Source: Candidatus Binatota bacterium
GTDB taxonomy: Bacteria > Desulfobacterota > Binatia > UBA1149
Assembly: GCA_012960245.1 (NCBI GenBank)
Contig: DUBO01000051.1
Coordinates: 60,887 to 124,886 of the forward strand
Length of the DNA: 64,000 nt
Direction: 5' to 3'
Positions 6,997 through 43,944 of the stretch are shown in pieces (the first letter of the stretch is position 1; each line of letters opens with the position of its first letter). The notes below the pieces were generated by a model. It ran no database searches, was not told the origin of the DNA, and worked only from the letters and a program-made list of their open reading frames with translations. A program made the translations under genes and the position numbers.

Positions 6997-7262
6997 CACG
7001 GCGAACTGGTGATTGTTCACCCGCCGCGTCGCCCAGGGGGGGCGAGTCGACGTCGGCCTGCCTTTGGCAACGGGGATGCCAGGGCAGCCGCGTCGACGAA
7101 GGATCCCGAAACCGGCAGAGCAGACGCTACAGCGTTTAACCGTGACGCATAATTACCCGTTCGGGGGGCGAGACAGTTTCCGAAATGGGGGCTAACGTCA
7201 TTAGCAAGGATAGTCAGGGGGGGGGTCCTCCGATGTTCTAAGTTTTTTGGAGGTCTTGTTCG

Positions 7263-10200
7263 ATGTTTGTATTCTCGGTTGTTACTAACGGTTTCTTTTC
7301 TCGTGCTGCTGTCTCGACAGCAGCCCTGGCCCTTATTCTCGGCTCGGCCGCTACGGCATTCTCACAGCCGGCACCGCCGCCTGCAGGTGAACCGTTGTTT
7401 GCCCCTCCACCGTCGTCGCTCAAGACGGCACTGGTTCCCGAACCGTCGACGCTCGCCGAGTACGTTGTCGACAAGCAGGCCGCCATCACCCTGGGGAAGG
7501 CCCTTTTCTGGGACATGCAGGTGGGCAGTGACGGGGTGCAGGCCTGCGCTTCCTGCCACTTCAGCGCGGGCGCCGACAGCCGCGATAAAAACACCGTTAG
7601 CCCAGGCCCCAACGGGGTGTTTGACAGCCTGGGGCCCAACGGGACGCTGACCGCTGCCGACTTTCCATTTACGAGTTTTGCCGACAACGACAACCGCCTC
7701 TCGACTCGTATTCACTCTGACGATGTCGTCGGTTCGCAGGGCGTTCACAAGGTCGATTTCCTTGACGTAGTGCTCGGTAGTCCCCTGGCCTTCGACCAGG
7801 GAACCGTGCTGCTCGACCCCACCTTCCAGGTTGGCGGGGTAAACACCCGGCAGTCAACCGGCCGCAACACCCCGTCGACCATTAACGCGGTATTCAACTG
7901 GCGTAACTTTTGGGACGGTCGTGCCCAGCCGCTCTTCAACGGTGTCAACCCCGGTGGCGCACACGATCCGTCAGCCCGCGTGATCGAAATACTCGCTGGT
8001 AGCGACGGTGTCCTCGGTACCCTAGACGACACCGTAGAGGCGGTGTCGGTGCTCATAGACAACGCCAGTCTTGCTTCGCAGGCGGTGGGTCCTCCCAACA
8101 GCGAAGTAGAGATGGCCTGGGCTGGGCGTATTTTTCCCAAGATAGGTAAGAAGATGCTTGCGCCCGGAATCATTCCGCTGGCCAAACAGCTGGTTCACTC
8201 CAGTGATAGCGTGCTGGGCGCGCTGGCCAAGACCAACACCAACCCCAACCTTCCGGGCCTCGATGCGAGCTACGAGACGCTCATACAGCAGGCTTTTGCG
8301 CCCCAGTGGTGGGATTCGGACAAGGTCGTGACTTTTCCCGGGACGGTTGCCTGTGGCGACACGCTCGGCATCGATGCCTCCACCTGCGCGGGCTTCCCGA
8401 CCATTTCTGATCCCACCGGTGCGCTGCTGACAACGAATGAGTACACGTTGATGGAGGCCAACTTTTCGCTTTTCTGGGGACTGGCTGTGCAGTTATACGA
8501 GGCCACCCTGGTATCGGACGACTCGCGTTTTGACCAATTCATGGACGGCGGCGGCATAGGCGGCAACACCGAGCACCTGCTCAACGCCGAGGAGAGGTTG
8601 GGCCTGGATGTTTTTCGCAACATCGGCTTCGCGCCGGGCGTCAGCGCCGGGCTCTGCGTAGGTTGCCACGTGGGCGCGGAGATGACGGCCGCGGCTACCG
8701 CTGCCATCAACTCGCTGGAGCCTTTTTTCCCGGGTGAACCGCCTCCCGTGCCCGAGTTACCGGTCGAGCAGATGCTCATGGCCTTCGGCGTGGGGCTCAA
8801 CAATCTGAACTTCCAGACAGATCCGCTGGCCATACTGACGCCCGAGTTTGCCGGGGTTCTGACCTTTGACCCGCGAGGATCGTTGATGCAGATCACACAG
8901 GACTCGGTGCCCACCGGCGCCTGCAACCTGGACGGGAGCTGCCCCAATGTCACCACAGCCGGTTTCGACGGAGTGCCGGGTACCGGTGACGACGGCAGTG
9001 TTCCCCAGCATTGCACCTGCAACAATTTTGACACAGCGACCCAGACCTGTGTTTCCGAGGGATGTGCGCCGGCCATTTTTACCCGCGACTACCTCGGTAC
9101 CCCCGGCCAGACCCAGCTGGGTGCGACCCCCCCCGCCGACTGCGGCGTGGGGTCGACCCTGAGCGCCCAGCTGTTTCCTACCGGCGCCGGTTCGCTCGTA
9201 AACCCCTTGTCGTTCGCCAGCGCGCTGTTCGTGCAGCAGCCTGACTGCGCGGCCGACCTGTCGACCGGTACGCTCGGCCTCGCGCCGGGCGACTACAGCT
9301 TTTTTGTAGACGGCATAAACCGCGGCACCATGCGCGTGATTGCCGACGTGATCTATGACTTCGGCTTCTACAACATTGCAGTGACCCCGACCTTCGACGA
9401 CGTGGGCGTGGGTGGCGATTCGCCTCCAGGTCAGCCGATATCGGTTGCCAGGCGCGCGGTCATGATGGCCGACGGAGAGCCTTGCGGCCAGGACCCCATT
9501 AACAACCCGCTGGTCTGCGACATGCCCGAACTCACGGGCGCGTTCTGCCTGCCCGGTGTGAGTGGCAACTGCACCATCCAGGATCCGTCGTTCGTGGCGC
9601 CCGGCACTCTCGAAGTGGTTGACGGTGCCTTCAAGGTGCCCCAGCTGCGCAACGTGGAACTGACTGGTCCGTACTTTCACAACGGTGGCAAGGGCACCCT
9701 CGGCCAGGTCGTTGATTTCTACAACCGTGGAGGCGACTTCCACGAGGACAACCTTCTGGAACTGGCACCGGAGATAATCTTTCTTGCCATGCCCCAGGTT
9801 GACCGCGACGCGTTGGTGGCCTTTCTCAAGACGCTCACCGACGAAAGGGTGCGCTACGAGGCAGCTCCCTTTGACCATCCGGAAATTTCGATACCCGTTG
9901 GCCAGGTTGGTGATGACCTCGCCGTGAGCGACACCAACTTTGACGGTAACGCTGACGATGTCTTCATGCACCTGGCAGCCGTTGGCGCACCGGGTAACTG
10001 CACGGGCGTAGACGGCTCAGCTCGCAGCTGTGATGACAACAACTCGTGCACAGATGACAGCTGCGTGCCCGAGTTCGGTTGCGTGAACGCACCCAATACA
10101 GCGCTCTGTAATGATGGTGACTCCTGCACCACGGCCGACCAGTGTGATGGAGCCGGCGGTTGTGCGGGCGTAGACACATCGCTGGTCGATTGTGACGACG

Positions 10201-12509
10201 CGGACGTGTGTACCGATGACAGTTGCGATGCGTTTGCCGGTTGCACGAACAGCTTCAATGCGTCCGGCTGTAGCGACGGCAACGCCTGTACCACGGGTGA
10301 TACCTGCAACGCGGGTATCTGCGTTGGTGGACCGCCACCGGCTTGTGACGACGGCAACGTTTGTACCGCAGATCTTTGCGATAGCAGCGTGGGCTGCGTG
10401 TCGTTGCCTACGTCGGTGAGTTGTGACGACGCGGATCCTTGCACGATCGATGACTTCTGCGTCAACGCTGCCTGCGTGGGCTCCACGCCCCCGGACTGCA
10501 GCGACGGCAATGTCTGCACGGACGACAGTTGCGTGAGCGCGGCCGGTGGCTGTGTGAACCTGCCCAACTCGGCGCCCTGCGATGATGGCGATGCCTGCAC
10601 GACCAACGACACCTGCCAAGCCGGTGTCTGCGTGGGTGGCGCGGCGCCCGACTGCGACGATGTCAACGGTTGCACCGACGACACTTGTGACAGTGCAATC
10701 GGCTGCGTAAGCGCAAACAACACGGTGTCTTGTGAGGACGGCGAGTTTTGCACCGACGGCGACCAGTGTTCGGGTGGCTCCTGCCAGCCGGGTGCGGCCA
10801 GGGATTGCTCGGATGGCAACGCCTGCACGACAGACAGCTGCGATGACGCTGCCAACCAGTGCCAGCACGTGGCCGACGATGGCTTCTGCGATGACAGTAA
10901 CCCCTGCACGAACGATTTCTGTTCGACGGCAACGGGCTGCTTCTACCAGGATAACGGCTTTGCCTGCGACGACGGGGACGCCTGCACGACCATCGACACC
11001 TGCCAGGCCAGTGTGTGTGTGGGTAGCACGCCGCCCAACTGCGACGATGGAAACGGTTGCACCGACGACGTCTGCGACAGCGCGACGGGCTGTGCGAACA
11101 ATGACAACACTGCCCTTTGCAGCGACGGCGACGCCTGTACTACCGGCGATGCCTGCTCGGCGGGCAGCTGCTTTGGCGGCGCCGCGCCTGATTGCGACGA
11201 CGGTAACGTGTGCACGGCCGACACCTGCGACACAGCCCTGGGTTGTCAAAATACCAACGTAGCTGTCGCCTGCGACGACGGCGACGCCTGCACCACGACC
11301 GATACTTGCTCGGCCGGCGGTTGCGTGGGGGGTGCTGCCCCTGATTGTAACGACGCCAACGGCTGTACCGATGACGTCTGCAATAGCGCGACGGGTTGTT
11401 CCAATACTGACAACACCACGGCCTGTGACGATGGTGACGCTTGCACAACCGGTGATATTTGCGCGGCTGGTTCGTGTGCCGGTGTAGATACTTCGGCCCA
11501 GGATTGCGAAGACGGAAATTCCTGCACGCTGGACTTCTGCAACCCTGCGAGCGGTTGCGTGAACGCTGCTACGGCTGGTAGTTGCGACGACGGCGACGCC
11601 TGCACGGATGACGACCAATGTATCAACGGGTCCTGCTTAGGCGGAGGCGCGCATGATTGTGATGACGCCAACGGTTGCACCGACGACAGTTGCGACAGCG
11701 CGACTGGTTGTGCCAACAGCGACAACACGGCCGCCTGCGACGATGGCGACGCCTGCACCACGGCTGATACCTGTGCGGCGGGTAGCTGCGTGGGCGGGGT
11801 CGCGCCGGATTGCGACGATGGCAACGGTTGCACCGACGACACCTGCGACAGCACGAGTGGCTGCGCTTACTCTAACAACACAGCCACTTGCGATGACGGC
11901 GAACCGCTCACCCCGGTAGACCAGTGCATCGCCGGCCAGTGCGTGGGCAGTGGATTGCAGTGCCCCGTACAACCAGTGGCGGGTTGCCGACAGCCGGTCA
12001 AAATTGGCAAGGCCAGGCTGGCGCTCAAAAAGAATGCTGTGGTGACGGCCAAGGACCGCATGAAGTGGAAGTGGGCCAACGGGTCTGCCACCGCGGCCGC
12101 CGACTTTGGTGACCTCGTTGGTGGTAGCGGTGAAGGTCTCGCCATTTGCTTCTACGATGAAGTTGCCGGCCAGGCCTCGCTTGTGATGGACCAGCTGGTG
12201 CCCGCGGGTGGCAGCTGCGGCGGCAAGGATTGTTGGGTAGAAACACCCAGGGTCATTAAGTTCAATGATCGATCGGGCGCAGCCAGCGACGGGATAACGG
12301 CATTAACTATCAAGCCCGGCGCCGACGGCAAGGCCAAGATCAAGGTCAAAGGCTCTGGTACGCGACTGGGAGTGGGTTCGCTGCCCCTGTCGATGGACAC
12401 CAAGGCTACCATGCAGGTCATAGCCGAGCCTGGTAGTTGCTGGCAGGCCGATTACTCGTCAGCTGCCAAGAACACCGACGGGCAGTTCAAGGCCAAGAGT
12501 TCGAATTGA
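7263..12509 (+). CDS. Secreted di-heme cytochrome c peroxidase (CCP/MauG family) domain with large insertions, fused to CTDC-type Cys-rich repeats (about 10000-11930) and the shared C-terminal domain (about 11957-12509)
   Basis: A GGAGG RBS sits 8 nt upstream and the N-terminus looks like a signal peptide. Heme motif 1 ([23 protein letters not shown]) is at 7545-7559. Heme motif 2 (GLCVGCH) is at 8655-8669. The CCP signature [31 protein letters not shown] is at ~9640-9730. These are followed by ~25 CDDGxACT-type repeats. The C-terminal KWKWANG...CWQADY block is homologous to the C-terminus of the upstream gene. Confidence 0.85.
   Translation: [1748 protein letters not shown]
10000..11935 (+). 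repeat. CTDC-type Cys-rich coding tandem repeats in the peroxidase fusion gene
   Basis: Same repeat family as 1400-2575 and 3826-6475; some units are near-identical at the nucleotide level. Confidence 0.8.
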
Positions 12510-13042
12510 TGTCGAGTCTCCGGCTTGAAGAATATGCGAAGAAAGCCCTGCTCGGGGTAGCGGTAGCCATGATTTTGGCGGCTATCGCGACCCCTGGCCT
12601 GGCTGTCGCCTCCTCATCCGACTTGGACAAGTGCAAGTTAGCCATCGCGAAAGCCGACTCCAAGTACGTGGGCAAGTACACCAAGGCCTCGCGACGGTGC
12701 ATGGACGACGGGGGCTCTGCTTCTGCCTGTATGGGTAGTACTGGCGGTGACGCTCGCTTTGTGGCCGCAGTGGGCAAGGCTCAGTCGCGGGCGAACAAGC
12801 TGGTCCTGAAAAAATGCTCCGCCTGGGGGGCCGCTGAAAAGGTTCGCTACGACCTCGGCTACGGTTCCAGCTGCCCAGGCATCGCCCAGCCCGGTAACTG
12901 TGATTTCGAACTTTCGGGGCTCGATATGCAGGGGGAAGACAATGACCTGCTCGAGTGCCTGGGGTGTCTTCATTCTCACATGGCCGAATGTTTGACTGCT
13001 GCTGCCTACAATATCGCCGTGCCTGGAGGTCGTTGTTTCTGA
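12509..13042 (+). CDS. Small secreted Cys-containing domain protein (177 aa), paralogous to the N-terminal domain of the downstream multicopper-oxidase fusion
   Basis: The ATG overlaps the TGA stop of the peroxidase gene (TGATG), which implies translational coupling. There is a signal peptide (MSSLRLEEYAKKALLGVAVAMILAAIATPGLAVA). The conserved pattern KC..RC..SC..KCS..DLGY.S.CPG....CDF..G.D..GE.ND.L.CL.C matches residues ~50-170 of the 13068 protein. Confidence 0.6.
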   Translation: MSSLRLEEYAKKALLGVAVAMILAAIATPGLAVASSSDLDKCKLAIAKADSKYVGKYTKASRRCMDDGGSASACMGSTGGDARFVAAVGKAQSRANKLVLKKCSAWGAAEKVRYDLGYGSSCPGIAQPGNCDFELSGLDMQGEDNDLLECLGCLHSHMAECLTAAAYNIAVPGGRCF

Positions 13043-13067
13043 CCAGCAGAAGCAGCCGAAGTCCGCG

Positions 13068-16000
13068 ATGAACAATTCTCAACCATTTTATCTACCGGTC
13101 TTCAAGACGATTCGGACAGCGCTGTTATGTTCGGTGTTGATGCTGCTTGTTCCCTTGACGGCAGTGGGCGCCGAGCAACAGCAGGCAGGGGATAGATTTC
13201 CTTCTAATCCGCTAGGAGCCTGCAGCACCAAGCTTGCTGCAGGAGGAGACAAGCTGTTCAAAAAGGCGGCCAGGGCACTGCAAAGATGCCAGAAGGCCGA
13301 CATGTCGACCTCGTGTCTACTCAACAGGCCGGCGAGCGTAGCGGGCGAGCTGTCGGGCTACGCGACCAAGGCACGACGTTCGATGGCGGGCAAGTGTTCG
13401 CGTATTAATTATGATTTGGCTGGATACCCTTCCACCTGTCCGGGTTTCGGAGACGCTTGTGATTTTACCGTGGCTGGCTGGGATGTCACCGGCGAAAAGA
13501 ACGACATGCTTGACTGCCTGCTTTGCATGTACGACGCAGCAGCGAGGCGGAGCCTTGAACTGCAGGTCGTGGTACCGCGTTGCGGCGACGGCATGGACAA
13601 CAGGCTCGACGAAATTTGCGATGACGGTAACGATGACAGTAACGACGCCTGCCTCGGAGACTGCCGCGCGGCGAGCTGTGGTGACGGTTTTGTCTGGGCC
13701 GGCCAGGAGAGCTGCGACAACGGTGACGCTAACTCCGATACAGAGGCAGATGCCTGTCGCAGCGATTGCACCCCTGCGGTCTGCGGTGATGGGACGGTAG
13801 ACAGCGGCGAAGAATGCGATGACTCGGGTGAATCGGCCAGCTGCGACAGCGATTGCAGCCTGGCTGTCTGCGGTGACGGTACCGTAAATGCCTCGGCCGG
13901 CGAGACTTGTGACGACACGGGTGAATCGGCTAGCTGCAACAGCGACTGTACGGTGGCCTCCTGCGGTGACGGCACGACTAATGGCACGGCCGGCGAATCC
14001 TGTGATGACGGCAACGGGGATAACACCGACGCCTGTCTCAACGATTGTTCCCCAGCCTCCTGCGGTGACGGTTTCACATGGGCGGGCTCAGAAGACTGCG
14101 ACGACGGGAATGCCGACAACAATGATTCCTGCCTGGACAGTTGCACAGCGGCGACTTGCGGCGATGGTTTTGCCTGGGCGGGCACCGAAGAATGCGACGA
14201 CGGCAACGCCGACAACGGTGACTCCTGCCTGGATAGTTGCGTCACCGCGACCTGTGGCGACGGCTTTTTATTCTCGGGCAGCGAGCAGTGCGACGACGGA
14301 GCGGCCAACTCTGATACCGCGCCCGACACTTGCCGCTCTGATTGCGAACTGCCGAGCTGTGGTGACGGGGTAGCCGACAGTGCGGAGCAATGTGATGATG
14401 GTAACGCCGACGACAACGACTCCTGCCTCGGCTCCTGTGTCGATGCGTCCTGCGGCGACGGTCATACCTGGGCTGGAATAGAAGCTTGCGATGCGGCTGG
14501 CTATAGCGCTTCGTGCAACCTGGACTGCAGCGTCTCGGTGTGCGGTGACGGCAAGGCCAACCCGGCGGCGGGTGAGGCCTGCGACGCGGCGGGCGAGAGC
14601 GCGGTTTGTGACCTCGATTGTAGTCTTGCGTCCTGCGGTGATGGAACGATGAACACGACGGCAGGCGAGGCTTGCGACGCGGCGGGTGAGAGCACAACTT
14701 GTGATCTCGACTGCAGCCTTGCCTCCTGCGGTGACGGAACAACGAACGCCACGGCAGGCGAGACCTGCGACACGGAAGGCGAAAGCGCCTCCTGTAACGC
14801 CGACTGCAGTACTGCCGCCTGTGGTGACGGCAAGGTCAACAGCAGCGCGGGCGAACAGTGCGATGCGGCGGGAGAATCTGATTTATGCGACGGCGATTGC
14901 ACGGTGGCTGCCTGTGGCGACGGCACCACTAACGCTACTGCCGGCGAGGCCTGCGACGACGGTAACAACAGCAACGGCGATGGCTGTCTCGATAGCTGTG
15001 CCACGGCCAGCTGCGGCGATGGCTTCGTCTTCGCGGGCGAAGAAGCCTGCGACGATGGCAACTCTTCAAACGCTGATGCCTGCCTGGCTGATTGTGCGGT
15101 TGCGAGCTGCGGCGATGGCTTTGTCTTCGTCGGCCAGGAAGCCTGCGATGACGGCAATTCCGACAACGGTGACGCTTGCCTCGACAGCTGCGAGACGGCG
15201 TCCTGCGGCGACGGTTTTCTGTTCGTCGGCGGGGAAGAGTGCGACGATGGCAACAGCAGCGACACCGACTCCTGTAGCGCGGCCTGTGATTCACAACGCG
15301 TAATTTCAGCCGGCGTGGTAGCGCTGGACCAGGTGCTTACCTACAACCGCTGGGGTAGCCACCAGGCTGCGGGGATGATTTTTGCGCTCCGGCGCGACGT
15401 GGTCGACATGGCCGGTAACCCAATAGGGGAGGGCGGAGTGCCAGGCCAGGTAATGCTCAGGCCAGGCAAGCGCCCGCGCCCGCTGGTGCTCAGGGCCAAC
15501 GAGGGGGATGTTCTGCAGGTCCACTTTACAAACCTGCTGGCACCGGCCAGGCCCAACGCCAAGGGAACGACCACGAGGCTGGCTTCGATGATGGTAAACG
15601 GCACGCGTGTGCTGGGCAACACCCACGACCCGGTCGTGACCGGGCTCGAGGGAATCGCACCGGGGCAGTCTACCGACTACTCGTGGAAGGCCGGGCACGA
15701 GGGCACAAAGTTGTTCTACAGCCTCGCCGGACCGGCTGGCGGTGGTGGCGACGGTGGCCAGCTTTCGCTCGGACTTTTCGGAGCTTTAAACGTCGAGCCC
15801 GAGGGCAGCAGCTGGTATCGCAGCCAGGTGACAGCGGCAGAGTTGGCGACGGCGCGGTCCCAGGCCGAAGCACCTGCGCTGCTTAACTACGACGCGGTAG
15901 ACATTGCAGGAGTGCCGGTGCTGCGCATGCTCGACGACGCCGGTGAACTTGTGCACTCTGATCTCAACGCGATCATCGCCTACGACCAAGCAGCAGATAA

Positions 16001-19000
16001 CGTGCAGTCGACCTCCGAGGCCACTTTCAGGGAGTTCTCGGTAATCTTTCACGACGAGATCGAGCTGACCCAGGGATACCCCCAACTTGATAACGATGTA
16101 CTCAAGCCGGTGAGCGATTCTTTTGCCATCAATTACGGCTCCGAGGGCCTGGGCTCGCGCCTGCTGGCCAACCGCCTGGGCGAGGGGCCGGCTGCGAACT
16201 GCCTGGAGTGCCCCTACGAAGAGTTCTTCCTCGAGTCAGCCGTGAGCGGTGACCCGGCCCTGCTGAATGTTTTCGAGGATGATCCCTCCAACGTTCACCA
16301 CAGCTATATCAACGACAACGTAAAATTCCGCAACCTGCACGCGGGCCCGAGAGAAACGCATATCTTTCACCTGCACGCTCACCAGTGGCTGGCCAACGCG
16401 GGTGAGGGTATCGACGACAACTCGGTATACCTTGATTCGCAGGCAATAAGCCCGATGAGTAATTTCACCTACGAGATCCAGTACGGTGGCGCGGGCAACC
16501 GCAACAAGGTCGTCGGTGATTCAATTTTTCACTGCCATCTCTATCCCCACTTTGCCCAGGGCATGTGGGAGCTGTGGAGAGCACACGATGTACTGGAGGA
16601 TGGAACCCGTCGCCTGATGGACGGAGAACTGGGACCGGGAACAAACCCGCTCACCGGGGTGACGGTTGGCGGCACGCCCATACCCGCGCTTGTTCCAATG
16701 CCCGACTACGCGATGGCCCCCGATCCCAGCTACGGGCCGAACGCATTGCCCGGGTATCCTTTCTACATGGCGCAGGTCGCGGGCCACCGGGCTCCACAAG
16801 CACCGCTTGACGTGGCCAGCGACGGCGGACTGCCGCGACACGTGTTTACTGACGGCGGCCAGCGAAGCACGGGTGCGGGGGCTGCCAGTTTTGATTTCCA
16901 CGTCGACGTGCAGGTCGCCAACATACAGGTGCTGCCCCAGGAGGGAACGGCGCTTGAGCAGGCCGCGATGGCTTTTCACGCCAGCCCCGGTGTGACTACC
17001 ACCACCCCCGAGGGTGACGCAGCTTTCTTTGAACTGAACGGCTTGCCTTCCACCGCCGGTGCCCCTTACGCTGAGCCCTGTCCGCCCCTATGCGGCAGCG
17101 CCCAGCAGGGCGAGTACCAAGCAGCTTGCATGGACGGCTGCACGGGCAAACCCTGGGATCCCGAGTGCTCATTGCGTTGTGAAGACTGCACCACGGCCCA
17201 CCGCACCTACCACGTGTCGTACATAGAGCTCGACCTGTTGGCCAACGCGGCCGGCTGGCACGACCCACAGGGGCGCATAAACGTGCTCGACTCAGACGTT
17301 TCTCTCTACGAGGGACAAACGACCACGGCGGATCCGTTTTTCTTCAGGGCTAACTCGGGTGAGTGCGTCACGTTCAAGCACACCAACCGCGCGCCCAAGG
17401 AGTTTGACCTGGATGATTTCCAGGTGAGGACGCCCGCTGATGTGGTTGGCCAGCACATCCACCTTGTCAAGTTCGATGTGACAAGCTCCGATGGCTCGGG
17501 CAACGGGTGGAACTACGAAGACGGTACTTACTCTGCTGAAGCCATCGCCGAATGGACGGCGGCCAGCAATGCTCTCGGTGGGTCGGCCACCTCGGGATAC
17601 GACGCGGCGGGCAACCCCGTCAACGTGTGGGGCGACGGCGCAACCTCGGGGGTGCCCACGACGCTGACGGCCGACGGTGGCTTTCAGACCACCACGCAGA
17701 GGTGGTGGGCAGACCCCTTGCTCAATAAGCATGGCCAGGACCGCAGCATAAGAACGGTGTTTACCCACGATCACTTTTTTCCGTCTACCGGCCAGCAGCA
17801 CGGTTTTTACAACGCGCTCACCATAGAACCTGCCGGTTCGCAGTGGCTCACGCCCGACCTGACCGATGATCTTTCGCTGCCGCTCGACCCCGCCCGCGGT
17901 GTGGGTACGCAGGCATACATAATTGCCGCGGACAGCAAGACCTGCACGGTGAGCGGGGAGGCGGTAGCCGTTGAACCGTTGCCCTGCAACTCGGACGCCG
18001 ACTGCCCTGAAGAAGAATGGTGCATGAATATGGACCACCGTGAGTTCATGATGGCGGTGGCCGATCTTGCACTTCTTTATACGCCCCTGGGTGTGCCCAT
18101 AGGCGCGCCGGCCCAGCCAGAGGCCATATCGAGTAAGGGTGGAACAGACGTAGTAAACTACCGTAACGAACCTTTTGCCGGACGCGGCGGCCCTCATCCC
18201 GATGCCGATTTGGATACGCTGAACTCGGGTAACGGCGTACCTTCCGGCGCGTTCAGCTCCTGGGTAAACGGCGACCCCTTTACCGAGATATTCAAGGCCC
18301 GCGAGGGCGAACGAATGCAGGTGCGGCTTATACAGGGCGCACAACAGGCCCAGCACAGCTTCAACCTTCACGGCGGGTTGTGGCCCGAGGCCATAGACGA
18401 CTCTGGGTCCCCGATGGTTCAGGGCCAACCCATAGGTATATCCGAACACTTCGAGTGCGACATGGGCGTGGCTCCGCCGGTGACCGGCGGCGGCGTGGCC
18501 GATTACCTGTACCATTTCGGCGCCAATGATCATTTGAACGACGGAAGCTGGGGTCTCATTCGCGTGTTTGCTGACGGGCTTTCTTTTGATGCCAGCGACT
18601 CTGAACTCAGGTCGGCGCAACTGGCCGCCGCGGCTGCCGGCGAGCGCAACGACTGCCTTGAGGATTCACCCGCGCGCTTGTTCGAGGTCGAAGCCTGGCG
18701 GGCCGCCGACCTGCTGCCCGGCGGCCGGCTGGTGTACAACCAGCGCGAGGACATTTACGACCCCAACGCGCGTATCTTCTTGCTGGCCGAGGACCGGGCC
18801 GCACTGGCGGCGGGTACCAAGGCCGTCGAGCCGCTCGTGCTCAGGGCCAACTCCGGCGACTGCATCACGGTGTCGTTGACTAACCACATGCCAGACACCG
18901 AGGTATCGATGCATCCGCAGCGCGTGTCCTACGACGTACGCTATTCTGACGGTGCCAACGTGGGCTTGAACTTTCTCCAGACCGCTATGCCCGGTGAGAC

Positions 19001-19706
19001 TATCAACTACCACTGGTTCGCCGGCTATACGTGGCACGGATTTTCCGAGCCTGAGGAGCTGGGTCCGGGCAACCTGCGCTCCTACGGCGACTTCCTGGTC
19101 GATGCTCGGCAGGGCTTGCTCGGCGCGTTGGTAATAGAAGAAGCCGGTGCCAGCTGGACCGACACCGTGACCGGCACGGCGGCTTCGTCGGGAACAGCGG
19201 TAGACGTGACCACGGCCTCTGGTGAAACCTTTCGCGAGTTCGTAGTTCTCTACCAGGAAGACCTGGACTTGTTCACGGGCCAGGGAAGGATTCCCGACGC
19301 CAAGGTCGATCAGGCCGAGAAGGCGTTCAATTACCGAACCGAGAATTTCTGGGCGCGGCTGGGCGTTCCTACTTCCGTAGACTTGAATGACGTGGCGTTT
19401 CCCTCCGATTTTTTCAGCGGCCCTATCGAGACACCTTTGTTCAGGGCAGCCGACGGGCAGAAGGTTCGTTTCCACGTACTGCAGCCCTCCGGCGGTCCCC
19501 TGCAGCACACCTTCCTCGTGCAGGGGCACGACTATCCGGACAACCGCCAACCGATGGCGGGCACCGGGGGGGCGAGCATTATAGCCCCCTTCGTGGCCCG
19601 TACCATGGACCTGGAAGGCGGCGCGCGCGCCGGCACATGGCTCTATCACGACGGCACGGGGTACGGTCGGGCGGGTGGCCTCTGGGGCCGGCTGGAAGTC
19701 GACTGA
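13068..19706 (+). CDS. Giant secreted fusion protein: N-terminal Cys domain, about 45 myxo-type disulfide-rich repeats (13590-15290) and a large multi-unit multicopper oxidase (15290-19706)
   Basis: Signal peptide-like N-terminus. Repeats of the form CGDGxVxxGEECDDGNxxxxDxCLxxC (TIGR02232-like spacing). Two cupredoxin domain-1-like segments (LVLRANEGDVLQVHFTNL, LVLRANSGDCITVSLTNHM), each followed by GLxGALxVEP. An HIFHLHAHQW (HxHxH) motif at 16355-16385 and a type-1 Cu motif HCHLYPHFAQGM at 16531-16566. Additional HIHLV, THDH and TWHGF His-rich motifs. Confidence 0.8.
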   Translation: MNNSQPFYLPVFKTIRTALLCSVLMLLVPLTAVGAEQQQAGDRFPSNPLGACSTKLAAGGDKLFKKAARALQRCQKADMSTSCLLNRPASVAGELSGYATKARRSMAGKCSRINYDLAGYPSTCPGFGDACDFTVAGWDVTGEKNDMLDCLLCMYDAAARRSLELQVVVPRCGDGMDNRLDEICDDGNDDSNDACLGDCRAASCGDGFVWAGQESCDNGDANSDTEADACRSDCTPAVCGDGTVDSGEECDDSGESASCDSDCSLAVCGDGTVNASAGETCDDTGESASCNSDCTVASCGDGTTNGTAGESCDDGNGDNTDACLNDCSPASCGDGFTWAGSEDCDDGNADNNDSCLDSCTAATCGDGFAWAGTEECDDGNADNGDSCLDSCVTATCGDGFLFSGSEQCDDGAANSDTAPDTCRSDCELPSCGDGVADSAEQCDDGNADDNDSCLGSCVDASCGDGHTWAGIEACDAAGYSASCNLDCSVSVCGDGKANPAAGEACDAAGESAVCDLDCSLASCGDGTMNTTAGEACDAAGESTTCDLDCSLASCGDGTTNATAGETCDTEGESASCNADCSTAACGDGKVNSSAGEQCDAAGESDLCDGDCTVAACGDGTTNATAGEACDDGNNSNGDGCLDSCATASCGDGFVFAGEEACDDGNSSNADACLADCAVASCGDGFVFVGQEACDDGNSDNGDACLDSCETASCGDGFLFVGGEECDDGNSSDTDSCSAACDSQRVISAGVVALDQVLTYNRWGSHQAAGMIFALRRDVVDMAGNPIGEGGVPGQVMLRPGKRPRPLVLRANEGDVLQVHFTNLLAPARPNAKGTTTRLASMMVNGTRVLGNTHDPVVTGLEGIAPGQSTDYSWKAGHEGTKLFYSLAGPAGGGGDGGQLSLGLFGALNVEPEGSSWYRSQVTAAELATARSQAEAPALLNYDAVDIAGVPVLRMLDDAGELVHSDLNAIIAYDQAADNVQSTSEATFREFSVIFHDEIELTQGYPQLDNDVLKPVSDSFAINYGSEGLGSRLLANRLGEGPAANCLECPYEEFFLESAVSGDPALLNVFEDDPSNVHHSYINDNVKFRNLHAGPRETHIFHLHAHQWLANAGEGIDDNSVYLDSQAISPMSNFTYEIQYGGAGNRNKVVGDSIFHCHLYPHFAQGMWELWRAHDVLEDGTRRLMDGELGPGTNPLTGVTVGGTPIPALVPMPDYAMAPDPSYGPNALPGYPFYMAQVAGHRAPQAPLDVASDGGLPRHVFTDGGQRSTGAGAASFDFHVDVQVANIQVLPQEGTALEQAAMAFHASPGVTTTTPEGDAAFFELNGLPSTAGAPYAEPCPPLCGSAQQGEYQAACMDGCTGKPWDPECSLRCEDCTTAHRTYHVSYIELDLLANAAGWHDPQGRINVLDSDVSLYEGQTTTADPFFFRANSGECVTFKHTNRAPKEFDLDDFQVRTPADVVGQHIHLVKFDVTSSDGSGNGWNYEDGTYSAEAIAEWTAASNALGGSATSGYDAAGNPVNVWGDGATSGVPTTLTADGGFQTTTQRWWADPLLNKHGQDRSIRTVFTHDHFFPSTGQQHGFYNALTIEPAGSQWLTPDLTDDLSLPLDPARGVGTQAYIIAADSKTCTVSGEAVAVEPLPCNSDADCPEEEWCMNMDHREFMMAVADLALLYTPLGVPIGAPAQPEAISSKGGTDVVNYRNEPFAGRGGPHPDADLDTLNSGNGVPSGAFSSWVNGDPFTEIFKAREGERMQVRLIQGAQQAQHSFNLHGGLWPEAIDDSGSPMVQGQPIGISEHFECDMGVAPPVTGGGVADYLYHFGANDHLNDGSWGLIRVFADGLSFDASDSELRSAQLAAAAAGERNDCLEDSPARLFEVEAWRAADLLPGGRLVYNQREDIYDPNARIFLLAEDRAALAAGTKAVEPLVLRANSGDCITVSLTNHMPDTEVSMHPQRVSYDVRYSDGANVGLNFLQTAMPGETINYHWFAGYTWHGFSEPEELGPGNLRSYGDFLVDARQGLLGALVIEEAGASWTDTVTGTAASSGTAVDVTTASGETFREFVVLYQEDLDLFTGQGRIPDAKVDQAEKAFNYRTENFWARLGVPTSVDLNDVAFPSDFFSGPIETPLFRAADGQKVRFHVLQPSGGPLQHTFLVQGHDYPDNRQPMAGTGGASIIAPFVARTMDLEGGARAGTWLYHDGTGYGRAGGLWGRLEVD
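13590..15290 (+). repeat. Myxo-type disulfide-rich repeat array (~108-nt period), coding
   Basis: CGDGxxNxxAGExCDxxGESxxCxxDCxxAxCGDG is reiterated about 45 times. Confidence 0.85.
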
Positions 19707-19847: not shown

Positions 19848-21746
19848 TTGCGGGGGTTTCCTAAATACGAAAGAAAGGTGGGATTGTCGGTGGCGATCCT
19901 GTTGCCGCTGGCGATGGTTTTCGGCTGCCCGGTGCCGGTGGATGCCGCGGATTCCAAGCCTGCGGGCGTTGAATTCTCGGTACACAACCTGGATTCCAAG
20001 GCGGGTCAGGCAATCAGGGCGGGCGGGGACCTTCTGGTCAAGTTCAGACTGTCTGATCCCGATTCTGGCTTCGGACTGTCGCAGTTGCACCCGGCTGCCT
20101 GGCTCAGCCCGCGCGAGAAGGGCGCTCCCGCGCCGTCGCAGCAGGAGTGCGAAAACCTGATACGCGGCATGGGGCAGTTCGGTGTCACGCACGCCGACGA
20201 CGATCTCAACGGTTACTACATCCTCACCCTCAACGCTGACAATTCAGTCTCTATTCTCAACCCCATGGTCAGCCTGAACACTTCCAACCAGAAGGCCCAC
20301 ATTCTCCTGGACGGCGAGGCGCACGCATGGGATTTTGACCCCAACACGGCGCTGGCCTGGGTGACCTTGCCCGACGATAACAAGGTGGCCGTTGTTGACG
20401 TCAAGGGCCGACGAGTCGCTGCCTACCTGGCAGTGGGCAACGCGCCGCGGTCGATAGAAGTACAACCCGACGGTCGTTTTGTGTGGGTGGGCAACGACGA
20501 TTCGGGTACCGTCAGCGTGTTGGCCCCAAGCGGCCAAGGACAACTTCGTTCGATCGAAGTGGGGCGAGGCCCGATAGATTTTGCCTTCGACGAACAGGGG
20601 CGCTACGTGATCGTGTCAGCGGGGGGTGCCGGCCGCGTGTCGGTGATCGATACGGGGAGCATGAAAGTCGTATCTTCTCTCGAAGTGGGCGAAGGCTCAC
20701 TTCAGGTCGCCTGGGCAGAACTGGCCGGCGCTTTTTACCTGCTCAACCCTTCGCGCAACACGGTTACGGTCGCTTACCCCCGCGAGGGCCGGGCTGCCGT
20801 GGAGATCGATGTCGCCGAGGGCGCCACGACGATTGAAGCCGATCCGCAGGGACGCTGGGTATTCGTGATCAACCCCGAGGCGCGCGCGGTTGACATCATC
20901 GATACCGCAGCTGCGAGGCTGTCGCGCAGGGTAGCGCTCGAGGAAAAACCCAGCCACGTTCTTTTCAGCTCGATCTTCGCCTACGTCTACCACGCCGACA
21001 GTTCCAACCTGTCGCTGGTAAAGCTCTCTGCGCTTGCGGATGCTGAAGCTGCACCGGTGCTGATCATCCCCATGGGAGTTGAGCGACCCGAGGGAAGAAT
21101 GGTGCGCCCGGGCCTGTTGCCCATGGACATTCTGCCCGATGAGGGCGGCGCCGTGGTGGCCAACCCGGTCGAGAAGGTCATCTATTTTTACACCGACGGA
21201 ATGATGTCTCCGATGGGTTCGTTCAAGACATGGGCGTCGAACCCGCTGGGCGTGATTCTCTACGACCGCTCGCTGCGGGAGCGCGGCAACTCGGGCGTCT
21301 ACGAGACGGTTACCCGCCTGGACGAACCCGGGGTGTACGATGTTCCCTTCGTGCTGGGCAGCCCACGGGTAGTGACCTGTTTTGAGTTCGAGGTCGCGGG
21401 AGAGCCCGGGCACGGGGAAGCCGTGAAGCCGTTGTTCCGCGGACTGTTCGTGGGCGAGGATCTCGCCCCGGGTGACGAGGTGACCCTGCGCTACCAGGTG
21501 GTCGACGGTCGCGATGGCCGTCCCCTGACCGGTCTCGACGACCTGAGATTGATAACCTTTCGCGCGGGCGAGAACTGGAGCGCGAGGTCCTGGACCAAGG
21601 AAGTAGAAGACGGCGTGTACGAGGCGGGTGTCACCTTTCCGCGCGGCGGCCGTTACCTGGTGCAGGTGGAGGCACGCTCGCTGGGCATCGGTTTCGGCGA
21701 TGCTGGAAGGGACTACGCCGACGTGTCGCAGGGAGCGACGAGATGA
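19848..21746 (+). CDS. Secreted, possibly lipoprotein, YVTN-family beta-propeller protein with an Ig-like C-terminal domain
   Basis: Signal peptide with an FGC motif. Repeated segments of the form YVIVSAGGAGRVSVIDTGSMKVVSSLEVGEG are typical of 40-residue YVTN beta-propeller repeats. The stop overlaps the next start (ATGA). Confidence 0.7.
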   Translation: MRGFPKYERKVGLSVAILLPLAMVFGCPVPVDAADSKPAGVEFSVHNLDSKAGQAIRAGGDLLVKFRLSDPDSGFGLSQLHPAAWLSPREKGAPAPSQQECENLIRGMGQFGVTHADDDLNGYYILTLNADNSVSILNPMVSLNTSNQKAHILLDGEAHAWDFDPNTALAWVTLPDDNKVAVVDVKGRRVAAYLAVGNAPRSIEVQPDGRFVWVGNDDSGTVSVLAPSGQGQLRSIEVGRGPIDFAFDEQGRYVIVSAGGAGRVSVIDTGSMKVVSSLEVGEGSLQVAWAELAGAFYLLNPSRNTVTVAYPREGRAAVEIDVAEGATTIEADPQGRWVFVINPEARAVDIIDTAAARLSRRVALEEKPSHVLFSSIFAYVYHADSSNLSLVKLSALADAEAAPVLIIPMGVERPEGRMVRPGLLPMDILPDEGGAVVANPVEKVIYFYTDGMMSPMGSFKTWASNPLGVILYDRSLRERGNSGVYETVTRLDEPGVYDVPFVLGSPRVVTCFEFEVAGEPGHGEAVKPLFRGLFVGEDLAPGDEVTLRYQVVDGRDGRPLTGLDDLRLITFRAGENWSARSWTKEVEDGVYEAGVTFPRGGRYLVQVEARSLGIGFGDAGRDYADVSQGATR

Positions 21747-22381
21747 AACAAGGCTTGCTCACAGTGCTGCTATCGGCAGCGATGCTTGCTTGCCCGTTCT
21801 TGATGCGGGCGGCAACGGCCGCGGGCGTGAGCGCGGGGGGAAACGACGCTGGCGACGTCAGGCTTATCGACGTGCCGCTGCTCGACCAGGATGGCAAGCG
21901 CATGATGCTGGTCAGTGACCTGGTCGGGGAGAAGATCGTGGTAATGAACTTCATTTTTACTACCTGCCCGTCGGTGTGCCCCATGCAGTCTGCAATTTTT
22001 GCAGGCCTGCAGAAGGAGCTGGGTGATCGCCTGGGCAACGAGGTCAAGCTGTTGAGCCTGAGCATAGACCCGGTCACCGATGTGCCTGCGAGGCTGGCGG
22101 AAACCGCCGCTCGCTACGGGGCGCGAGAGGGCTGGACCTGGCTCACGGGCGAGAAGGCCGACGTCGACAGGGCCCTGGTCGGCCTGGGTGCGTACTCGAG
22201 CGAGGTTGAATCGCACCCGGCGATGATCCTGGTGGGAGACGGCAGCACGGGCGATTGGACACGCTTCTATGGTTTTCCGCGTCCGGTAGACGTGCTGGCC
22301 CGAGTGGACGCGCTCGTCGCGGCACGGATCGCGGGGCCGGGAGCGGTTGCCGCGGAGCCGGCAGAAGAAAACCAGCGATGA
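21743..22381 (+). CDS. SCO1/SenC family copper chaperone (thioredoxin fold, CxxxC)
   Basis: VVMNFIFTTCPSVCP...LLSLSIDPVTDVPARL...GWTWLTG is the SCO1/SenC signature. ATGA overlap with the upstream gene. Confidence 0.8.
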   Translation: MKQGLLTVLLSAAMLACPFLMRAATAAGVSAGGNDAGDVRLIDVPLLDQDGKRMMLVSDLVGEKIVVMNFIFTTCPSVCPMQSAIFAGLQKELGDRLGNEVKLLSLSIDPVTDVPARLAETAARYGAREGWTWLTGEKADVDRALVGLGAYSSEVESHPAMILVGDGSTGDWTRFYGFPRPVDVLARVDALVAARIAGPGAVAAEPAEENQR

Positions 22382-23043
22382 AATGCTCGAGCTCTAAAAC
22401 TTCGACGATTAGTTTCGCAACGGTGAGCGTGACGGCCCTGGTGTGCTTTCTGCTGCTCGGTGTAACCCGTTCCGCCGCGGCCGCCGCCGCCGAGACTCAA
22501 GCTACTACCACCCCCGTTTCTGTCACTGCCGCCCGCGACGGAGACGAGGCCGCGCGAAGCTGGTTCACCGAATCCATCTTGCTTGACCAACGCGGTCGAG
22601 AGCTGAAGTTCTACAGCGATGTTCTCAAGGACCAGGTAGTGGTCGTCAACTTCATCTTTACCCGTTGCCCCGGCACTTGCCCGGTGCAGACGGCCAAGAT
22701 GTCGGAACTCTACAAGGAACTCGGTGGAGAAATGGGGCGGACGGTGCGCTTCGTATCGATTTCGGTAGACCCCGACAACGACACACCGGCGAAGTTGCTT
22801 GAATTTGCAGACCGCTACAAGGCTGGTGACGGCTGGTTTTTTCTTACGGGTGAGCAAAAAAGTCTCGACCAGGTAACGCGCAGGCTCGGTGCTCACAATA
22901 GTCTTGCCGAGGCGCACTCGCCCTTGTTCCTGCTCGGAAATGTCAGCCGCGAACACTGGGTCAAAATGCGCCCGAGCGCTTCGGTGGCAACGCTGGCGGG
23001 TGAAGTACGAAAACTGCTCGCGGTCGATAAAGAAGATGGCTGA
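22378..23043 (+). CDS. Second SCO1/SenC family copper chaperone paralog
   Basis: Internal ATG at 22378 (MKCSSS..., signal-like TM segment) overlapping the upstream stop (ATGA). VVVNFIFTRCPGTCP...FVSISVDPDNDTPAKL...GWFFLTG. Confidence 0.8.
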   Translation: MKCSSSKTSTISFATVSVTALVCFLLLGVTRSAAAAAAETQATTTPVSVTAARDGDEAARSWFTESILLDQRGRELKFYSDVLKDQVVVVNFIFTRCPGTCPVQTAKMSELYKELGGEMGRTVRFVSISVDPDNDTPAKLLEFADRYKAGDGWFFLTGEQKSLDQVTRRLGAHNSLAEAHSPLFLLGNVSREHWVKMRPSASVATLAGEVRKLLAVDKEDG

Positions 23044-24673
23044 CAGGATGACGGCGGCACTGCCAGCGCGGTTACTCGTCGTGGCGGCGCTGGGTGGGGT
23101 GCTGGTTGCCTTGGTTGCCGATCCGGCAGTGGCTGGCTGGGGCGAACAGGAGCAGCGCGGCAAGTCGGTTTACGAGCAGGGCAGGGCCACGGGCCAGGTG
23201 AAGGCACTGCTGGCGGGGCCGGGCCTCGAAGTCGATGCGGCCCAGTTTCCCTGCGTAAACTGTCACGGCCACGACGGCGCGGGTGTCATTGAAGGTGGCG
23301 TCACCACTGCCGACATCAGGCCGTCGCGCTTAGCGTTCGCGGCCGATGCCACCAGGGACTTCGGCAGGCAGCGGCCGGCCTACGACAACGAGGCGCTGGC
23401 AATGGCGATCAGGTCGGGTCTCGACCCAGGTGGCAACAGCCTTCACCCGGCCATGCCTCGCTACCGTATCAACGACGACGACTTGGCCGACCTGCTGGCC
23501 TACATGCGCCACCTGGGGCGAGAGCCTGTAGCAGGGGTAGCAGAAGATGCGGTGAGGGTCGCCGCGTTGCTGCCTTCCGCTGGACCGCTGGCCGCCCCCG
23601 CCCGCGAGGTTGAGCGTGTGCTCGCGGCCTTCGAAGAATACACCAACGAACAGGGCGGGGCCTACGGTCGGCGCTTGCTGCTGGAGCTCAAGCACTACGA
23701 TCCGTCGGTGGATGCCGGTGGCGTTGCCGCGGTGGACGAGTTGCTGGCGGGCGAACGCCCGTTCTGCCTCTTGTCGAGCATGGGCCTGGGGGCCGCTGCG
23801 TTGGCCACGCTTGAACAAGCCGGCGTTCCGCTGGTCGCGCCGCTGGCGGTACCTGCCAGTGACGGCTACGGCGCCGCCCGAAACACCTTTTTTGTTTTTA
23901 CCTCCGTGGCCGACCAGGCCAGGGTATTGGTCGATCATCTGGTGGCCGAGCTACCCGGCCTGGGCGGGGGCGCGGTGCTGCTGCACGACTCTGGTCCCGA
24001 GGGGCTGGCGGGCAAGCTGGGTGTAGAAAGCCAACTGTCCGGCTACGACCAGACGCTGTCGGCGAGTATCCAACTGGCAGCTGCGGGAGGCGTTGAGTCT
24101 GTCGTGGCGGAGCTCGTCGCGGCCGGAACAGCGGGCCAACGGCCCTCGGCTGTATTTTTCTTTGCCGATGGAGAGCGAGCGGCAGAGTTCCTGCGCCTGG
24201 CCGCTGCCGAAGACTGGCACCCGCTGCTGTTGGGACCCGCCGAAAGGCTGTCCCCCGGCCTGGCCGGCCTGCCCCCGGCTTTGCTCGCCGGACTGCGCCT
24301 GGTTTCGCCTGCCGGGGTGCCGGACCTAGACGCCGGCCGTAGCAGGGAGTTTCTCGCGGTGATGGAAAGAGAAGGAATTGCGGGGAGCTACCGCGCGTTT
24401 CAAATCTCGGCCTGGGCTGGAGGCTTGCTGCTGAGAGAAGGGTTGCGGAGATCTGGCCGTCGTCTTACCACACCTCGTTTCATGGCATCGCTCACCGGCC
24501 TGCGCGGGTTCGATACCGGCTTGCTGGCGCCGTTGTCATTTGACGAAAACAGCAGGGTGGGTGTGGCCGGCGCCACGGTGCTGCGGTTTTCAACGGCCGG
24601 CCCGGGCTTGTCGGTTGCCCGTAGATGGCGCGAACCCCTGGCGGCATCCGCCGTTGTAGAGCCTCAACTGTAA
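23036..24673 (+). CDS. Periplasmic mono-heme cytochrome c domain fused to a type-I periplasmic binding protein (Leu/Ile/Val-binding-like) fold
   Basis: Start MADRMTAALPARLLVVAALGG overlaps the upstream stop by 8 nt. A CVNCH heme motif is followed by a Met-containing loop. The remaining ~450 aa has a PBP-like alternating alpha/beta pattern. Confidence 0.65.
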   Translation: MADRMTAALPARLLVVAALGGVLVALVADPAVAGWGEQEQRGKSVYEQGRATGQVKALLAGPGLEVDAAQFPCVNCHGHDGAGVIEGGVTTADIRPSRLAFAADATRDFGRQRPAYDNEALAMAIRSGLDPGGNSLHPAMPRYRINDDDLADLLAYMRHLGREPVAGVAEDAVRVAALLPSAGPLAAPAREVERVLAAFEEYTNEQGGAYGRRLLLELKHYDPSVDAGGVAAVDELLAGERPFCLLSSMGLGAAALATLEQAGVPLVAPLAVPASDGYGAARNTFFVFTSVADQARVLVDHLVAELPGLGGGAVLLHDSGPEGLAGKLGVESQLSGYDQTLSASIQLAAAGGVESVVAELVAAGTAGQRPSAVFFFADGERAAEFLRLAAAEDWHPLLLGPAERLSPGLAGLPPALLAGLRLVSPAGVPDLDAGRSREFLAVMEREGIAGSYRAFQISAWAGGLLLREGLRRSGRRLTTPRFMASLTGLRGFDTGLLAPLSFDENSRVGVAGATVLRFSTAGPGLSVARRWREPLAASAVVEPQL

Positions 24674-42800: not shown

Positions 42801-42915
42801 GGAACGCGTCGACCGGGAGCTCGCGGTAAGCCCGGTAGCCCGCGAGCCCTACGAGCAGGCCCAGCGCGAGCACGAGCAGTCGGTTGCCGAGTCCAAAGCG
42901 TATGAGTGTATCCAT
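39841..42915 (-). CDS. Heavy-metal efflux RND transporter, CzcA/CusA family (HME-RND)
   Basis: 1024 aa with 12 TM segments. N-terminal ...LPVDAFPDVSPNLVQVFTETEGLAPGDVEKYVTHPIE is the HME-RND signature. Confidence 0.9.
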   Translation of the reverse strand: MDTLIRFGLGNRLLVLALGLLVGLAGYRAYRELPVDAFPDVSPNLVQVFTETEGLAPGDVEKYVTHPIEASMNGLPKVTRLRSVSNFGLSVVNIYFEDGTDIYFARQVVGERLQEARELIPEGFGEPQLGPISTGMGLVLFYYLEDATGDYSLEELRGIQDWLVKFHLQTVPGVTEILGIGGYEKQFQVNVHPEHLLGYGVTIADVIERIRENNLNVGAQFIEKNDEEYIVRSVGLASGVDDLKNIVVKSKDGTPVFLSDLADIEIGGAVRRGVQTRNGTEEVVSAMVVKLFGSNSSTVIGQVEDKMEEINGILPDGISLVPYYEQKTLVEACVTTVTSALVQGILLVALVLMAFMGGLRASLVVALAIPFSFLFATLGMGYFGISANLMSLGGLAIAIGMMVDGTIVIVENVDRALAEADPDESRTAVVCRACLEVARPIVFAISIIIIVFLPLFTLQGVEGKTFRPLAYTVALAMLGSLIFAVALAPTLSDLLMRRQKTSGARGAVLRRLTAYYEPAVSFFVQRRGYAIALAVGLLLVGAAVFPRLGSEFTPRLQEGTMVLRLTMPPSVSLTKSTELTMIVERRLMKIPEISGVVTRIGRGEIGAHTDPVNSAEMYILLHPRDEWRNASTQPELEEQIRLDLGDIPGIATNFTQPIAMTVDELLEGVRAELAIKLFGDELDELIARGNEIKRIVETVPGAVDVQVDQVAGTPQLLITVDRLAVARYGMNVADVQKTIRAAVGGQVAGQVFEGIRRFDIYVRFAAPYRSTANSIGDILVDGPSGVRVPLSELAHIEEIVGPRQITREDNQRFITIQLNVVGRDIGSFVAEASEELASAVTLPPGYLLTWGGQFRLQQEANQRLAVVVPITLLIVFFLLLLSFGSIANSLLIIANIPLALVGGVVALWATGQNLSVPSSVGFIALFGIALENGMVLVTCFNQLVKDGVAVNEASVRGATQRLRPVLITAATTALGLFPLLFSTGTGSEVQRPLATVVVGGLLTSTILTLLVIPALYRWFSEPST

Positions 42916-42941
42916 CGTCGGTTTACCCGGCCGCCCCTTAG

Positions 42942-43943: not shown

Positions 43944-43944
43944 T

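Follow-up and report, generated by a model that had tools for sequence, protein, structure and literature searches.

In the 64,000-nucleotide window analyzed here (contig DUBO01000051.1, forward-strand positions 60,887 to 124,886, from a Candidatus Binatota bacterium; G+C content ~62%), a small secreted protein and the multicopper oxidase (MCO) encoded immediately downstream of it each carry one copy of the same eight-cysteine domain. Elsewhere this domain occurs mostly as a tandem of two types, A and B, on a single polypeptide, and the oxidase and the small protein appear to hold one type each. We tentatively propose that the small protein and the N-terminal domain of the oxidase bind each other in trans, as the halves of a split A-B pair, with the small protein serving as an accessory subunit, an arrangement that we regard as possible, although somewhat short of probable. 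The features on which this proposal is based are listed below.

12494..12499, + strand: Shine-Dalgarno-like CAAGAG within the 3' end of the peroxidase gene, 9 nucleotides ahead of the ATG of the small gene
12507..12511, + strand: TGATG stop/start overlap of the peroxidase gene and the small gene (peroxidase TGA at 12507-12509)
12509..12610, + strand: predicted Sec signal peptide, small-protein residues 1-34, cleavage after AVA, read from the sequence by eye
12620..13024, + strand: free domain copy, assigned to type B (family hidden Markov model (HMM), broad profile A4, E=5.9e-35)
13043..13067, + strand: 25-nucleotide spacer separating the small gene from the oxidase gene; no terminator-like site found
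13068..19706, + strand: multicopper oxidase, 2212 amino acids, with its own signal peptide (NCBIfam NF041487 MnxG; Pfam Cu-oxidase_3 and Cu-oxidase_2)
13215..13568, + strand: fused domain copy, assigned to type A, oxidase residues ~50-167, envelope 47-173 (family HMM, profile A4, E=1.1e-27)
13575..15290, + strand: acidic cysteine-rich run of DUF4215/TIGR02232 repeats leading from the A domain to the catalytic region (approximate boundaries)

The small open reading frame (ORF; 12509-13042, + strand) encodes 177 amino acids plus a stop codon, and its ATG at 12509 sits inside the stop codon of an upstream peroxidase gene. The initial annotation had described a secreted protein of 177 amino acids with an ATG overlapping the peroxidase stop, and both its coordinates and its anatomy proved correct. 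The leader consists of an n-region with KK, a hydrophobic core of 22 residues and an AVA/SSS cleavage site, a pattern kept in orthologs, and inspection of its sequence found neither a lipobox nor a twin-arginine motif. Because orthologs at 77-84% identity give ratios of nonsynonymous to synonymous substitution rates (dN/dS) of 0.32-0.40, we consider the small ORF a genuine gene on these grounds. A frameshift or fission artifact was rejected in view of the separate signal peptides, the order of a B copy followed by an A copy, the conservation of both genes in two lineages and a dN/dS below 1. The Shine-Dalgarno-like site reads CAGGAG in the five related loci whose junctions were compared (L019, L017, L007, L002 and L001). 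The TGATG overlap is kept in L019, L017 and L007; L001 and L002 have ATC instead, with a TTG start one codon upstream. In these latter two loci, which belong to one sub-lineage (L001 at ~9862-9867 and L002 at ~823-828), the apparent TTG start still overlaps the peroxidase stop despite the changed start codon. In the databases, the exact small protein is recorded as a 'hypothetical protein' from metagenome-assembled genomes (MAGs) labeled Candidatus Binatota or 'Deltaproteobacteria bacterium'. No Pfam family (E<=0.1) or NCBIfam family matched it, and the profile of its family gave no match among Protein Data Bank (PDB) sequences.

A comparison of the small protein with residues 1-200 of the oxidase by BLASTP gave 28% identity over 180 columns (E=4e-14), and phmmer detected the oxidase with E=1.2e-12. 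The domain common to both proteins comprises about 125 amino acids and corresponds to oxidase residues 47-173. This bears out the cysteine-framework domain that the initial annotation had recognized in the small protein and at the N terminus of the oxidase, and the motifs listed there were found in the alignment (KC, RC, KCS, DLGY-S-CPG, CDF and GE-ND-L-CL-C). The pairwise alignment that had been suggested as a check also showed the similarity to be significant beyond the cysteines. When the 8 columns pairing Cys with Cys are left out, identical residues occupy 30 of the 118 that remain (z=9.9 relative to 20000 shuffles), and the Cys-masked local alignment scores 92, compared with 28 +/- 5 in shuffles with fixed cysteines (z=12.3), a score reached in 0 of 3000 shuffles. 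As the annotation had further held, the same module exists both free and fused, since the family HMM matches both proteins; neither phmmer nor the family HMM found a third copy in the 64-kb window. The term paralog, used for the small protein at that stage, holds in the broad sense of homology and does not extend to any special closeness. Free and fused copies are 26-34% identical, the same as their identity to unrelated family members, and they formed a joint clade in 6 of 100 bootstraps.

To place these two copies within a wider family, we scanned 1.84 billion cluster representatives exhaustively with HMMER (E<=1e-3), using a profile of the locus's own free and fused copies (A2). The scan identified 58 family representatives, of which the 55 from outside this locus type were used for copy counts. 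The family was visible only by this exhaustive scan. Word-indexed protein searches retrieved close relatives only (5 matches for the small protein and 1 for the oxidase N terminus), and their profile version gave 14 matches, mostly short fragments. A scan of metagenomes added only the same lineage and three NHL tandem proteins, and a scan of genomes found one MAG. The partners fused to the domain are NHL propellers, kelch, Big_2 and CARDB domains and a polyhydroxybutyrate (PHB)-depolymerase-type esterase, with the tandem modules placed either N-terminally after the leader or C-terminally in their host proteins. The family is rare but recurrent, extracellular and undescribed. An alignment of 34 diverse copies contains six invariant cysteine columns, two more cysteine columns conserved at >=90% and a nearly invariant glycine, and shows no invariant histidine or methionine. 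In the mature small protein, the framework cysteines are C6, C28, C38, C67, C86, C95, C114 and C117. All 8 are present in both window copies, and the free copy has an extra C-terminal pair, giving 10 cysteines in total. The motifs LG(Y/F/W)xxxCP and ND(L/V)xDCLxC are common to the window copies and the tandem proteins, as are the eight-cysteine framework and the predicted three-helix core.

An AlphaFold2 model of the small protein based on the 34-sequence alignment has a predicted local distance difference test score (pLDDT) of 89.3 and a predicted template modeling score (pTM) of 0.83; it replaced an earlier run with 7 sequences that was poor (pLDDT 64). In the model, three long helices span residues 2-30, 46-70 and 111-131, a cysteine-containing loop carries the LGYxxxCPG...CDF...GxxNDxLxCLxC motif, and the framework cysteines are located at helix ends and in the loop. 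Because the conserved cysteines are even in number and lie at these positions, and because the protein bears an export signal, they would most likely form four or five structural disulfides. Heme binding by the small protein was considered and rejected, as the CLGCLH of the free copy corresponds to CxxCxH and not to CxxCH, and the fused copy lacks a histidine at that place.

The copy counts set the window apart from the rest of the family. At least two copies are carried by 52 of the 55 outside representatives, and 43 have two full copies fewer than 25 residues apart; in these tandem proteins, 0-9 residues separate A from B on the shared chain. Single-copy proteins account for the remaining 3 of 55. 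When each copy was compared with all others, the nearest neighbor was the same-position copy of another protein for 85 of 86 copies and the sister copy in 1 case only, and by this measure the first (A) and second (B) copies are distinct ancient types. The window oxidase and the window small protein have one copy each, with no tandem on either chain. First copies make up 11 of the 12 nearest relatives of the fused copy in each of the window, L002 and L011, where the fused copy scores 58.4-59.5 bits on the first-copy HMM vs 39.9-49.7 bits on the second-copy HMM (59.5 vs 39.9 for the window). For the free copy, second copies are 10 of the 12 nearest relatives in the window, 11 of 12 in L002 and 8 of 12 in L011. 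Typed in this way, the locus has exactly one A copy, in the oxidase, and exactly one B copy, in the small protein, on two polypeptides. With its confident model, eight-cysteine framework and ancient A/B duality, the domain defines a new disulfide-rich extracellular family. Two other single-copy proteins were examined as further split pairs and rejected: P0061 combines a full A copy with a decayed second one and lacks a partner gene, and P0056 is a single-copy member without a contig on record.

The pair formed by the small gene and the oxidase gene is conserved beyond the window. Close relatives (77-84% identity) occur in marine metagenomes and in the MAG 'Proteobacteria bacterium NIOZ-UU50', where the order peroxidase, small gene, oxidase is kept. 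A second lineage is represented by the Candidatus Binatia MAG GCA_046754245.1 (L011-L016), in which locus L011 encodes a free copy of 166 amino acids (47% identical), a 17-nucleotide spacer with no terminator-like site, an oxidase of 2823 amino acids with a fused copy (47%) and then a beta-propeller gene. The L011 oxidase (5418-13889) is longer, at 2823 vs 2212 amino acids, because it contains about double the number of DUF4215 repeats; stalk length varies between the lineages, while the A domain and the catalytic part are retained. Across the two lineages the free copies group together in 87 of 100 bootstraps and the fused copies in all 100, so the split is older than the separation of the two Binatia lineages. 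Both halves diverged at an equal rate, and the two copies are ancient lineages that have been maintained separately.

The same comparison separates the oxidase from the peroxidase as a partner. The protein encoded upstream of the L011 pair has CTDC repeats and a C-terminal domain like that of the window peroxidase (42%, E=2e-55; L011 3400-4005). It contains no CCP_MauG domain, and its gene lies ~890 bp from the small gene with no convincing ORF in between. Since the pair persists in L011 without an upstream peroxidase, the conserved partner is the oxidase and not the peroxidase. The TGATG coupling is specific to one lineage and reflects an operon arrangement, not the core system.

According to the proposed split-pair arrangement, both proteins would be exported by the Sec route and fold oxidatively, after which the free B domain would dock in trans onto the A domain of the oxidase and so restore the two-domain unit. 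Sitting at the tip of the Cys-repeat stalk of the oxidase, the small protein would serve as an accessory or docking subunit without catalytic function and might be functionally comparable to MnxE and MnxF of the Bacillus Mnx oxidase. Domains that are fused in some proteins tend to interact when they are encoded separately, and we propose association in trans on a similar Rosetta-stone logic, because A and B are covalently paired in nearly all family members elsewhere. Further support comes from the conserved adjacency of the two genes and the equal divergence of both halves. Both proteins have signal peptides of their own, and the spacers are short, 25 nucleotides in the window and 17 in L011. 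A broader version of this idea is more doubtful, namely that A and B are a dedicated heterodimerizing pair, mostly in cis and split in Binatia, and so a new extracellular docking system that would assemble a cell-surface metal-oxidizing machine together with giant repeat proteins and a heme peroxidase; such a system would be analogous in its logic to cohesin-dockerin pairs.

Large manganese-oxidizing MCOs are hard to study; the Bacillus enzyme shows activity only when complexed with its small accessory proteins, and we know of no partners of Pseudomonas-type MnxG. If the assignment is right, the locus suggests a Pseudomonas-type mnxG operon in marine Binatia in which the oxidase has gained an N-terminal docking domain together with a matching free partner, and the split pair would be the first functional clue to the eight-cysteine domain family. 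The combination of an MCO with a small partner is itself already known; what would be new is that the partner supplies the complementary half of a two-domain module split between the proteins. Should the pairing prove wrong, the small protein would be no more than an ordinary hypothetical secreted protein from a rare domain family.

Several observations weigh against the split-pair proposal. On the profile HMMs, the two types are not separated for the free copy, which scores 63.1-69.7 bits with the first-copy HMM vs 61.0-68.6 bits with the second-copy HMM (63.1 vs 61.0 for the window), so that its assignment to B comes from nearest neighbors only. The typing itself was built on 43 tandem proteins from few subfamilies, and the neighbor counts are not independent. 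In the locus the gene for the B copy precedes the one for the A copy, whereas the tandem proteins have A first, and simple gene fission would not produce this order. The arrangement was seen in two lineages only, both of them Binatia. The family also occurs on proteins unrelated to oxidases, and the domain may just bind a third partner.

This last point leads to a different interpretation of the free and fused copies, in which both would act as a common address tag, each binding the same third partner, for instance the mineral product, the giant CTDC/cohesin scaffold protein or some component of the cell surface or matrix. On this view the small protein could itself belong to the surface or matrix as a separate component, or it could compete with the oxidase for attachment or regulate that attachment. 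The portability of the domain, which is found at the N or C termini of unrelated secreted proteins including NHL propellers and a PHB-depolymerase-type esterase, is in keeping with such a role, as is the richness of the locus in repeat-bearing extracellular proteins, one of them with a cohesin match. However, a common tag leaves unexplained why two divergent lineages have each retained exactly one A and one B although almost every other member carries both in cis, and we consider it rather unlikely. The small protein could also have no specific functional link to the oxidase at all and be one of a lineage-expanded family of secreted cysteine-rich proteins that came to lie in the operon by chance. 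The lack of special closeness between the free and fused copies, and the absence of functional annotation in Pfam, NCBIfam, PDB sequence searches and protein records, would fit this explanation. It is nevertheless unlikely, as the same-strand adjacency with a spacer of ~25 nucleotides or less has been kept at ~47% identity despite a changed upstream neighborhood, as the two copies are of complementary A and B types, and as single-copy proteins are otherwise so few in the family, the sole examinable one (P0061) having a decayed second copy.

The initial annotation had proposed an adaptor or binding module that links peroxidase and oxidase production or assembly, which we took as a physical or translational connection between the two. 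A role in binding or assembly is still the best available reading, given the A/B complementarity and the pairing in two lineages, but the link to the peroxidase did not hold. Conservation of the TGATG overlap and of the Shine-Dalgarno-like site inside the peroxidase gene within the window's lineage favors a three-gene connection, as do the common strand of the three genes and the lack of terminator-like sites separating them. The peroxidase, however, has no copy of the domain by either phmmer or the family HMM, and the L011 pair persists beside a distant upstream gene that encodes no CCP_MauG domain; a connection to the peroxidase is thus quite improbable. Least probable among the alternatives, and in our view very much so, is copper handling, in which a cysteine-rich helical protein would store copper or deliver it to the oxidase, a role comparable to that of Csp-type bundles or of the copper-binding MnxE and MnxF. 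The location of such a protein near an MCO and two SCO1 chaperones is suggestive, and MnxE and MnxF do bind copper (PMC5622069). Yet the even number of cysteines at helix ends and in a loop is the pattern of structural disulfides and not of a Cys-lined core, the family has no invariant histidine or methionine, and most of its fusion partners have no copper requirement. Csp-type copper storage bundles also differ in that the window small protein has no Pfam match at all (E<=0.1), and hence none to the copper-storage family, and in that its cysteines do not line a helix core.

For the split-pair proposal, the closest known parallel is the MnxE3F3G complex of Bacillus sp. PL-12, a precedent for a multi-subunit manganese-oxidizing MCO with small subunits encoded upstream (PMC5622069). 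In Bacillus, the genes mnxE, mnxF and mnxG lie next to one another, each of them is required, and MnxG is bound by MnxE3F3 (PMC5622069). MnxE and MnxF resemble the window small protein in being small, encoded directly upstream of the MCO and without characterized homologs, and they contain disulfide, as is predicted for the small protein. The window small gene likewise lies on the same strand as its oxidase gene, with a 25-nucleotide spacer free of terminator-like sites, and the two are probably co-transcribed. We liken the small protein to MnxE and MnxF as a possible analog and claim no homology. Unlike MnxE and MnxF, which are not homologous to any domain of MnxG, the small protein is homologous to the N-terminal domain of its own oxidase. 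The oxidases also differ, as the Bacillus MnxG is a spore-coat enzyme of ~138 kDa, whereas the window oxidase resembles Pseudomonas-type MnxG (NF041487) and has a long Cys-repeat extension. The small subunit of the Pleurotus Nlac laccase (PDB 8paq) is also a non-catalytic helical subunit on a multicopper oxidase; its resemblance to the small protein is at chance level (Foldseek E=8.8, TM-score 0.30), and we claim no relationship.

The oxidase matches NF041487 MnxG with E=1.2e-200 and 669 bits in 6 stretches, below the equivalog cutoff of 3100, and on this score it is a clear MnxG homolog and not an equivalog. It is laid out as a signal peptide, an A-type eight-cysteine domain, DUF4215/myxo_disulf repeats and an MnxG-like region of six-cupredoxin type, with copper-site motifs HLH at 1101, HCH at 1155, HIH at 1463 and HDH at 1567. 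TIGR02232 matches it in 8 stretches, and the repeat run is presumably a disulfide-braced stalk. The genes that follow the oxidase gene are listed below.

19848..21746, + strand: beta-propeller (YNCE / cytochrome D1-like) plus YtkA-like protein (Pfam)
21743..22381, + strand: first SCO1/SenC copper chaperone (Pfam, E=6e-17)
22255..23043 (mechanical ORF limits), + strand: second SCO1/SenC copper chaperone (Pfam, E=8e-20)
22889..24673 (mechanical ORF limits), + strand: fusion of cytochrome c and periplasmic binding protein (Pfam Peripla_BP_6, E=6e-26; Cytochrom_C, E=2e-6)

By comparison with the gene calls of L017, the true start of the second SCO1/SenC gene is probably near 22380-22390. The order of beta-propeller, SCO1, SCO1 and cytochrome c/binding protein also occurs in L017 and L018. 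The mnxG operon of Pseudomonas putida GB-1 consists of mnxG followed by genes for a YVTN beta-propeller, two SCO1/SenC proteins, a cytochrome c/substrate-binding protein and a SurA-domain protein (PMC11409713, Table 4), so that from the oxidase onward five genes stand in the same order (PMC11409713). The two operons differ at both ends. In P. putida GB-1, the operon is described as beginning with mnxG and no small upstream gene is reported (PMC11409713), and the window has no SurA-type gene, the operon being followed by a trypsin-like protease. This protease is secreted and has a PPC domain (24877-26523, + strand), and it occupies the position of the SurA gene of P. putida; next to it lies a gene for a 619-amino-acid protein without a Pfam family (26628-28487, + strand). 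Relative to the P. putida MnxG, the Binatia oxidase is extended by ~740 residues that comprise a signal peptide, the A domain and the DUF4215 stalk. The locus thus represents a Binatia form of an mnxG-type, putatively Mn(II)-oxidizing operon, its activity being judged from sequence, and uncultured marine Binatia may accordingly be candidates for Mn(II) oxidation. The substrate of the oxidase could alternatively be Fe(II) or an organic compound. A literature search combining Binatia, manganese and multicopper oxidase returned nothing relevant and no paper linking Binatia to manganese oxidation.

Upstream of the small gene lies the peroxidase gene.

7263..12509, + strand: di-heme CCP/MauG/MbnH-like peroxidase, 1748 amino acids (Pfam CCP_MauG, E=1.5e-18; NCBIfam MbnH family, E=1.4e-21)

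The peroxidase scores 68.3 bits with PF03150 (cutoff 25.6) and contains two CxxCH motifs, CASCH at 95 and CVGCH at 465. These are accompanied by 13 Dicty_CTDC cysteine repeats (E=1e-39) and an unnamed C-terminal domain of ~200 amino acids in a secreted protein with ~124 cysteines. In its L011 counterpart, an unrelated domain of ~260 residues takes the place of the catalytic N-terminal part while the repeats and the C-terminal domain are kept, which looks like head-swapping on a common stalk. Further upstream, a giant secreted protein of at least 2329 amino acids (window 7-6996, + strand), probably truncated where the window begins, contains 14 Dicty_CTDC repeats and matches the Cohesin domain with 26.4 bits (cutoff 24.1). 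Over its final ~200 residues it shares 40% identity (E=3e-50) with the C terminus of the peroxidase (window 11880-12506). The unnamed C-terminal module common to the three CTDC-repeat proteins is possibly a sorting or anchoring domain.

Long antisense or out-of-frame ORFs of up to 533 amino acids cover the cysteine-repeat regions at 8270-11972 and 13409-15265 (- strand). They were rejected as genes and attributed to GC-rich repetitive coding DNA, of which they are by-products. The rest of the window holds unrelated genes at 31386-33566, 36850-37854 and 39841-45354 (all - strand), which encode a TonB-dependent receptor, a radical S-adenosylmethionine (SAM)/DUF3641 protein and a resistance-nodulation-division (RND) efflux triad composed of an AcrB-type pump, an HlyD-type adaptor and an outer-membrane factor.

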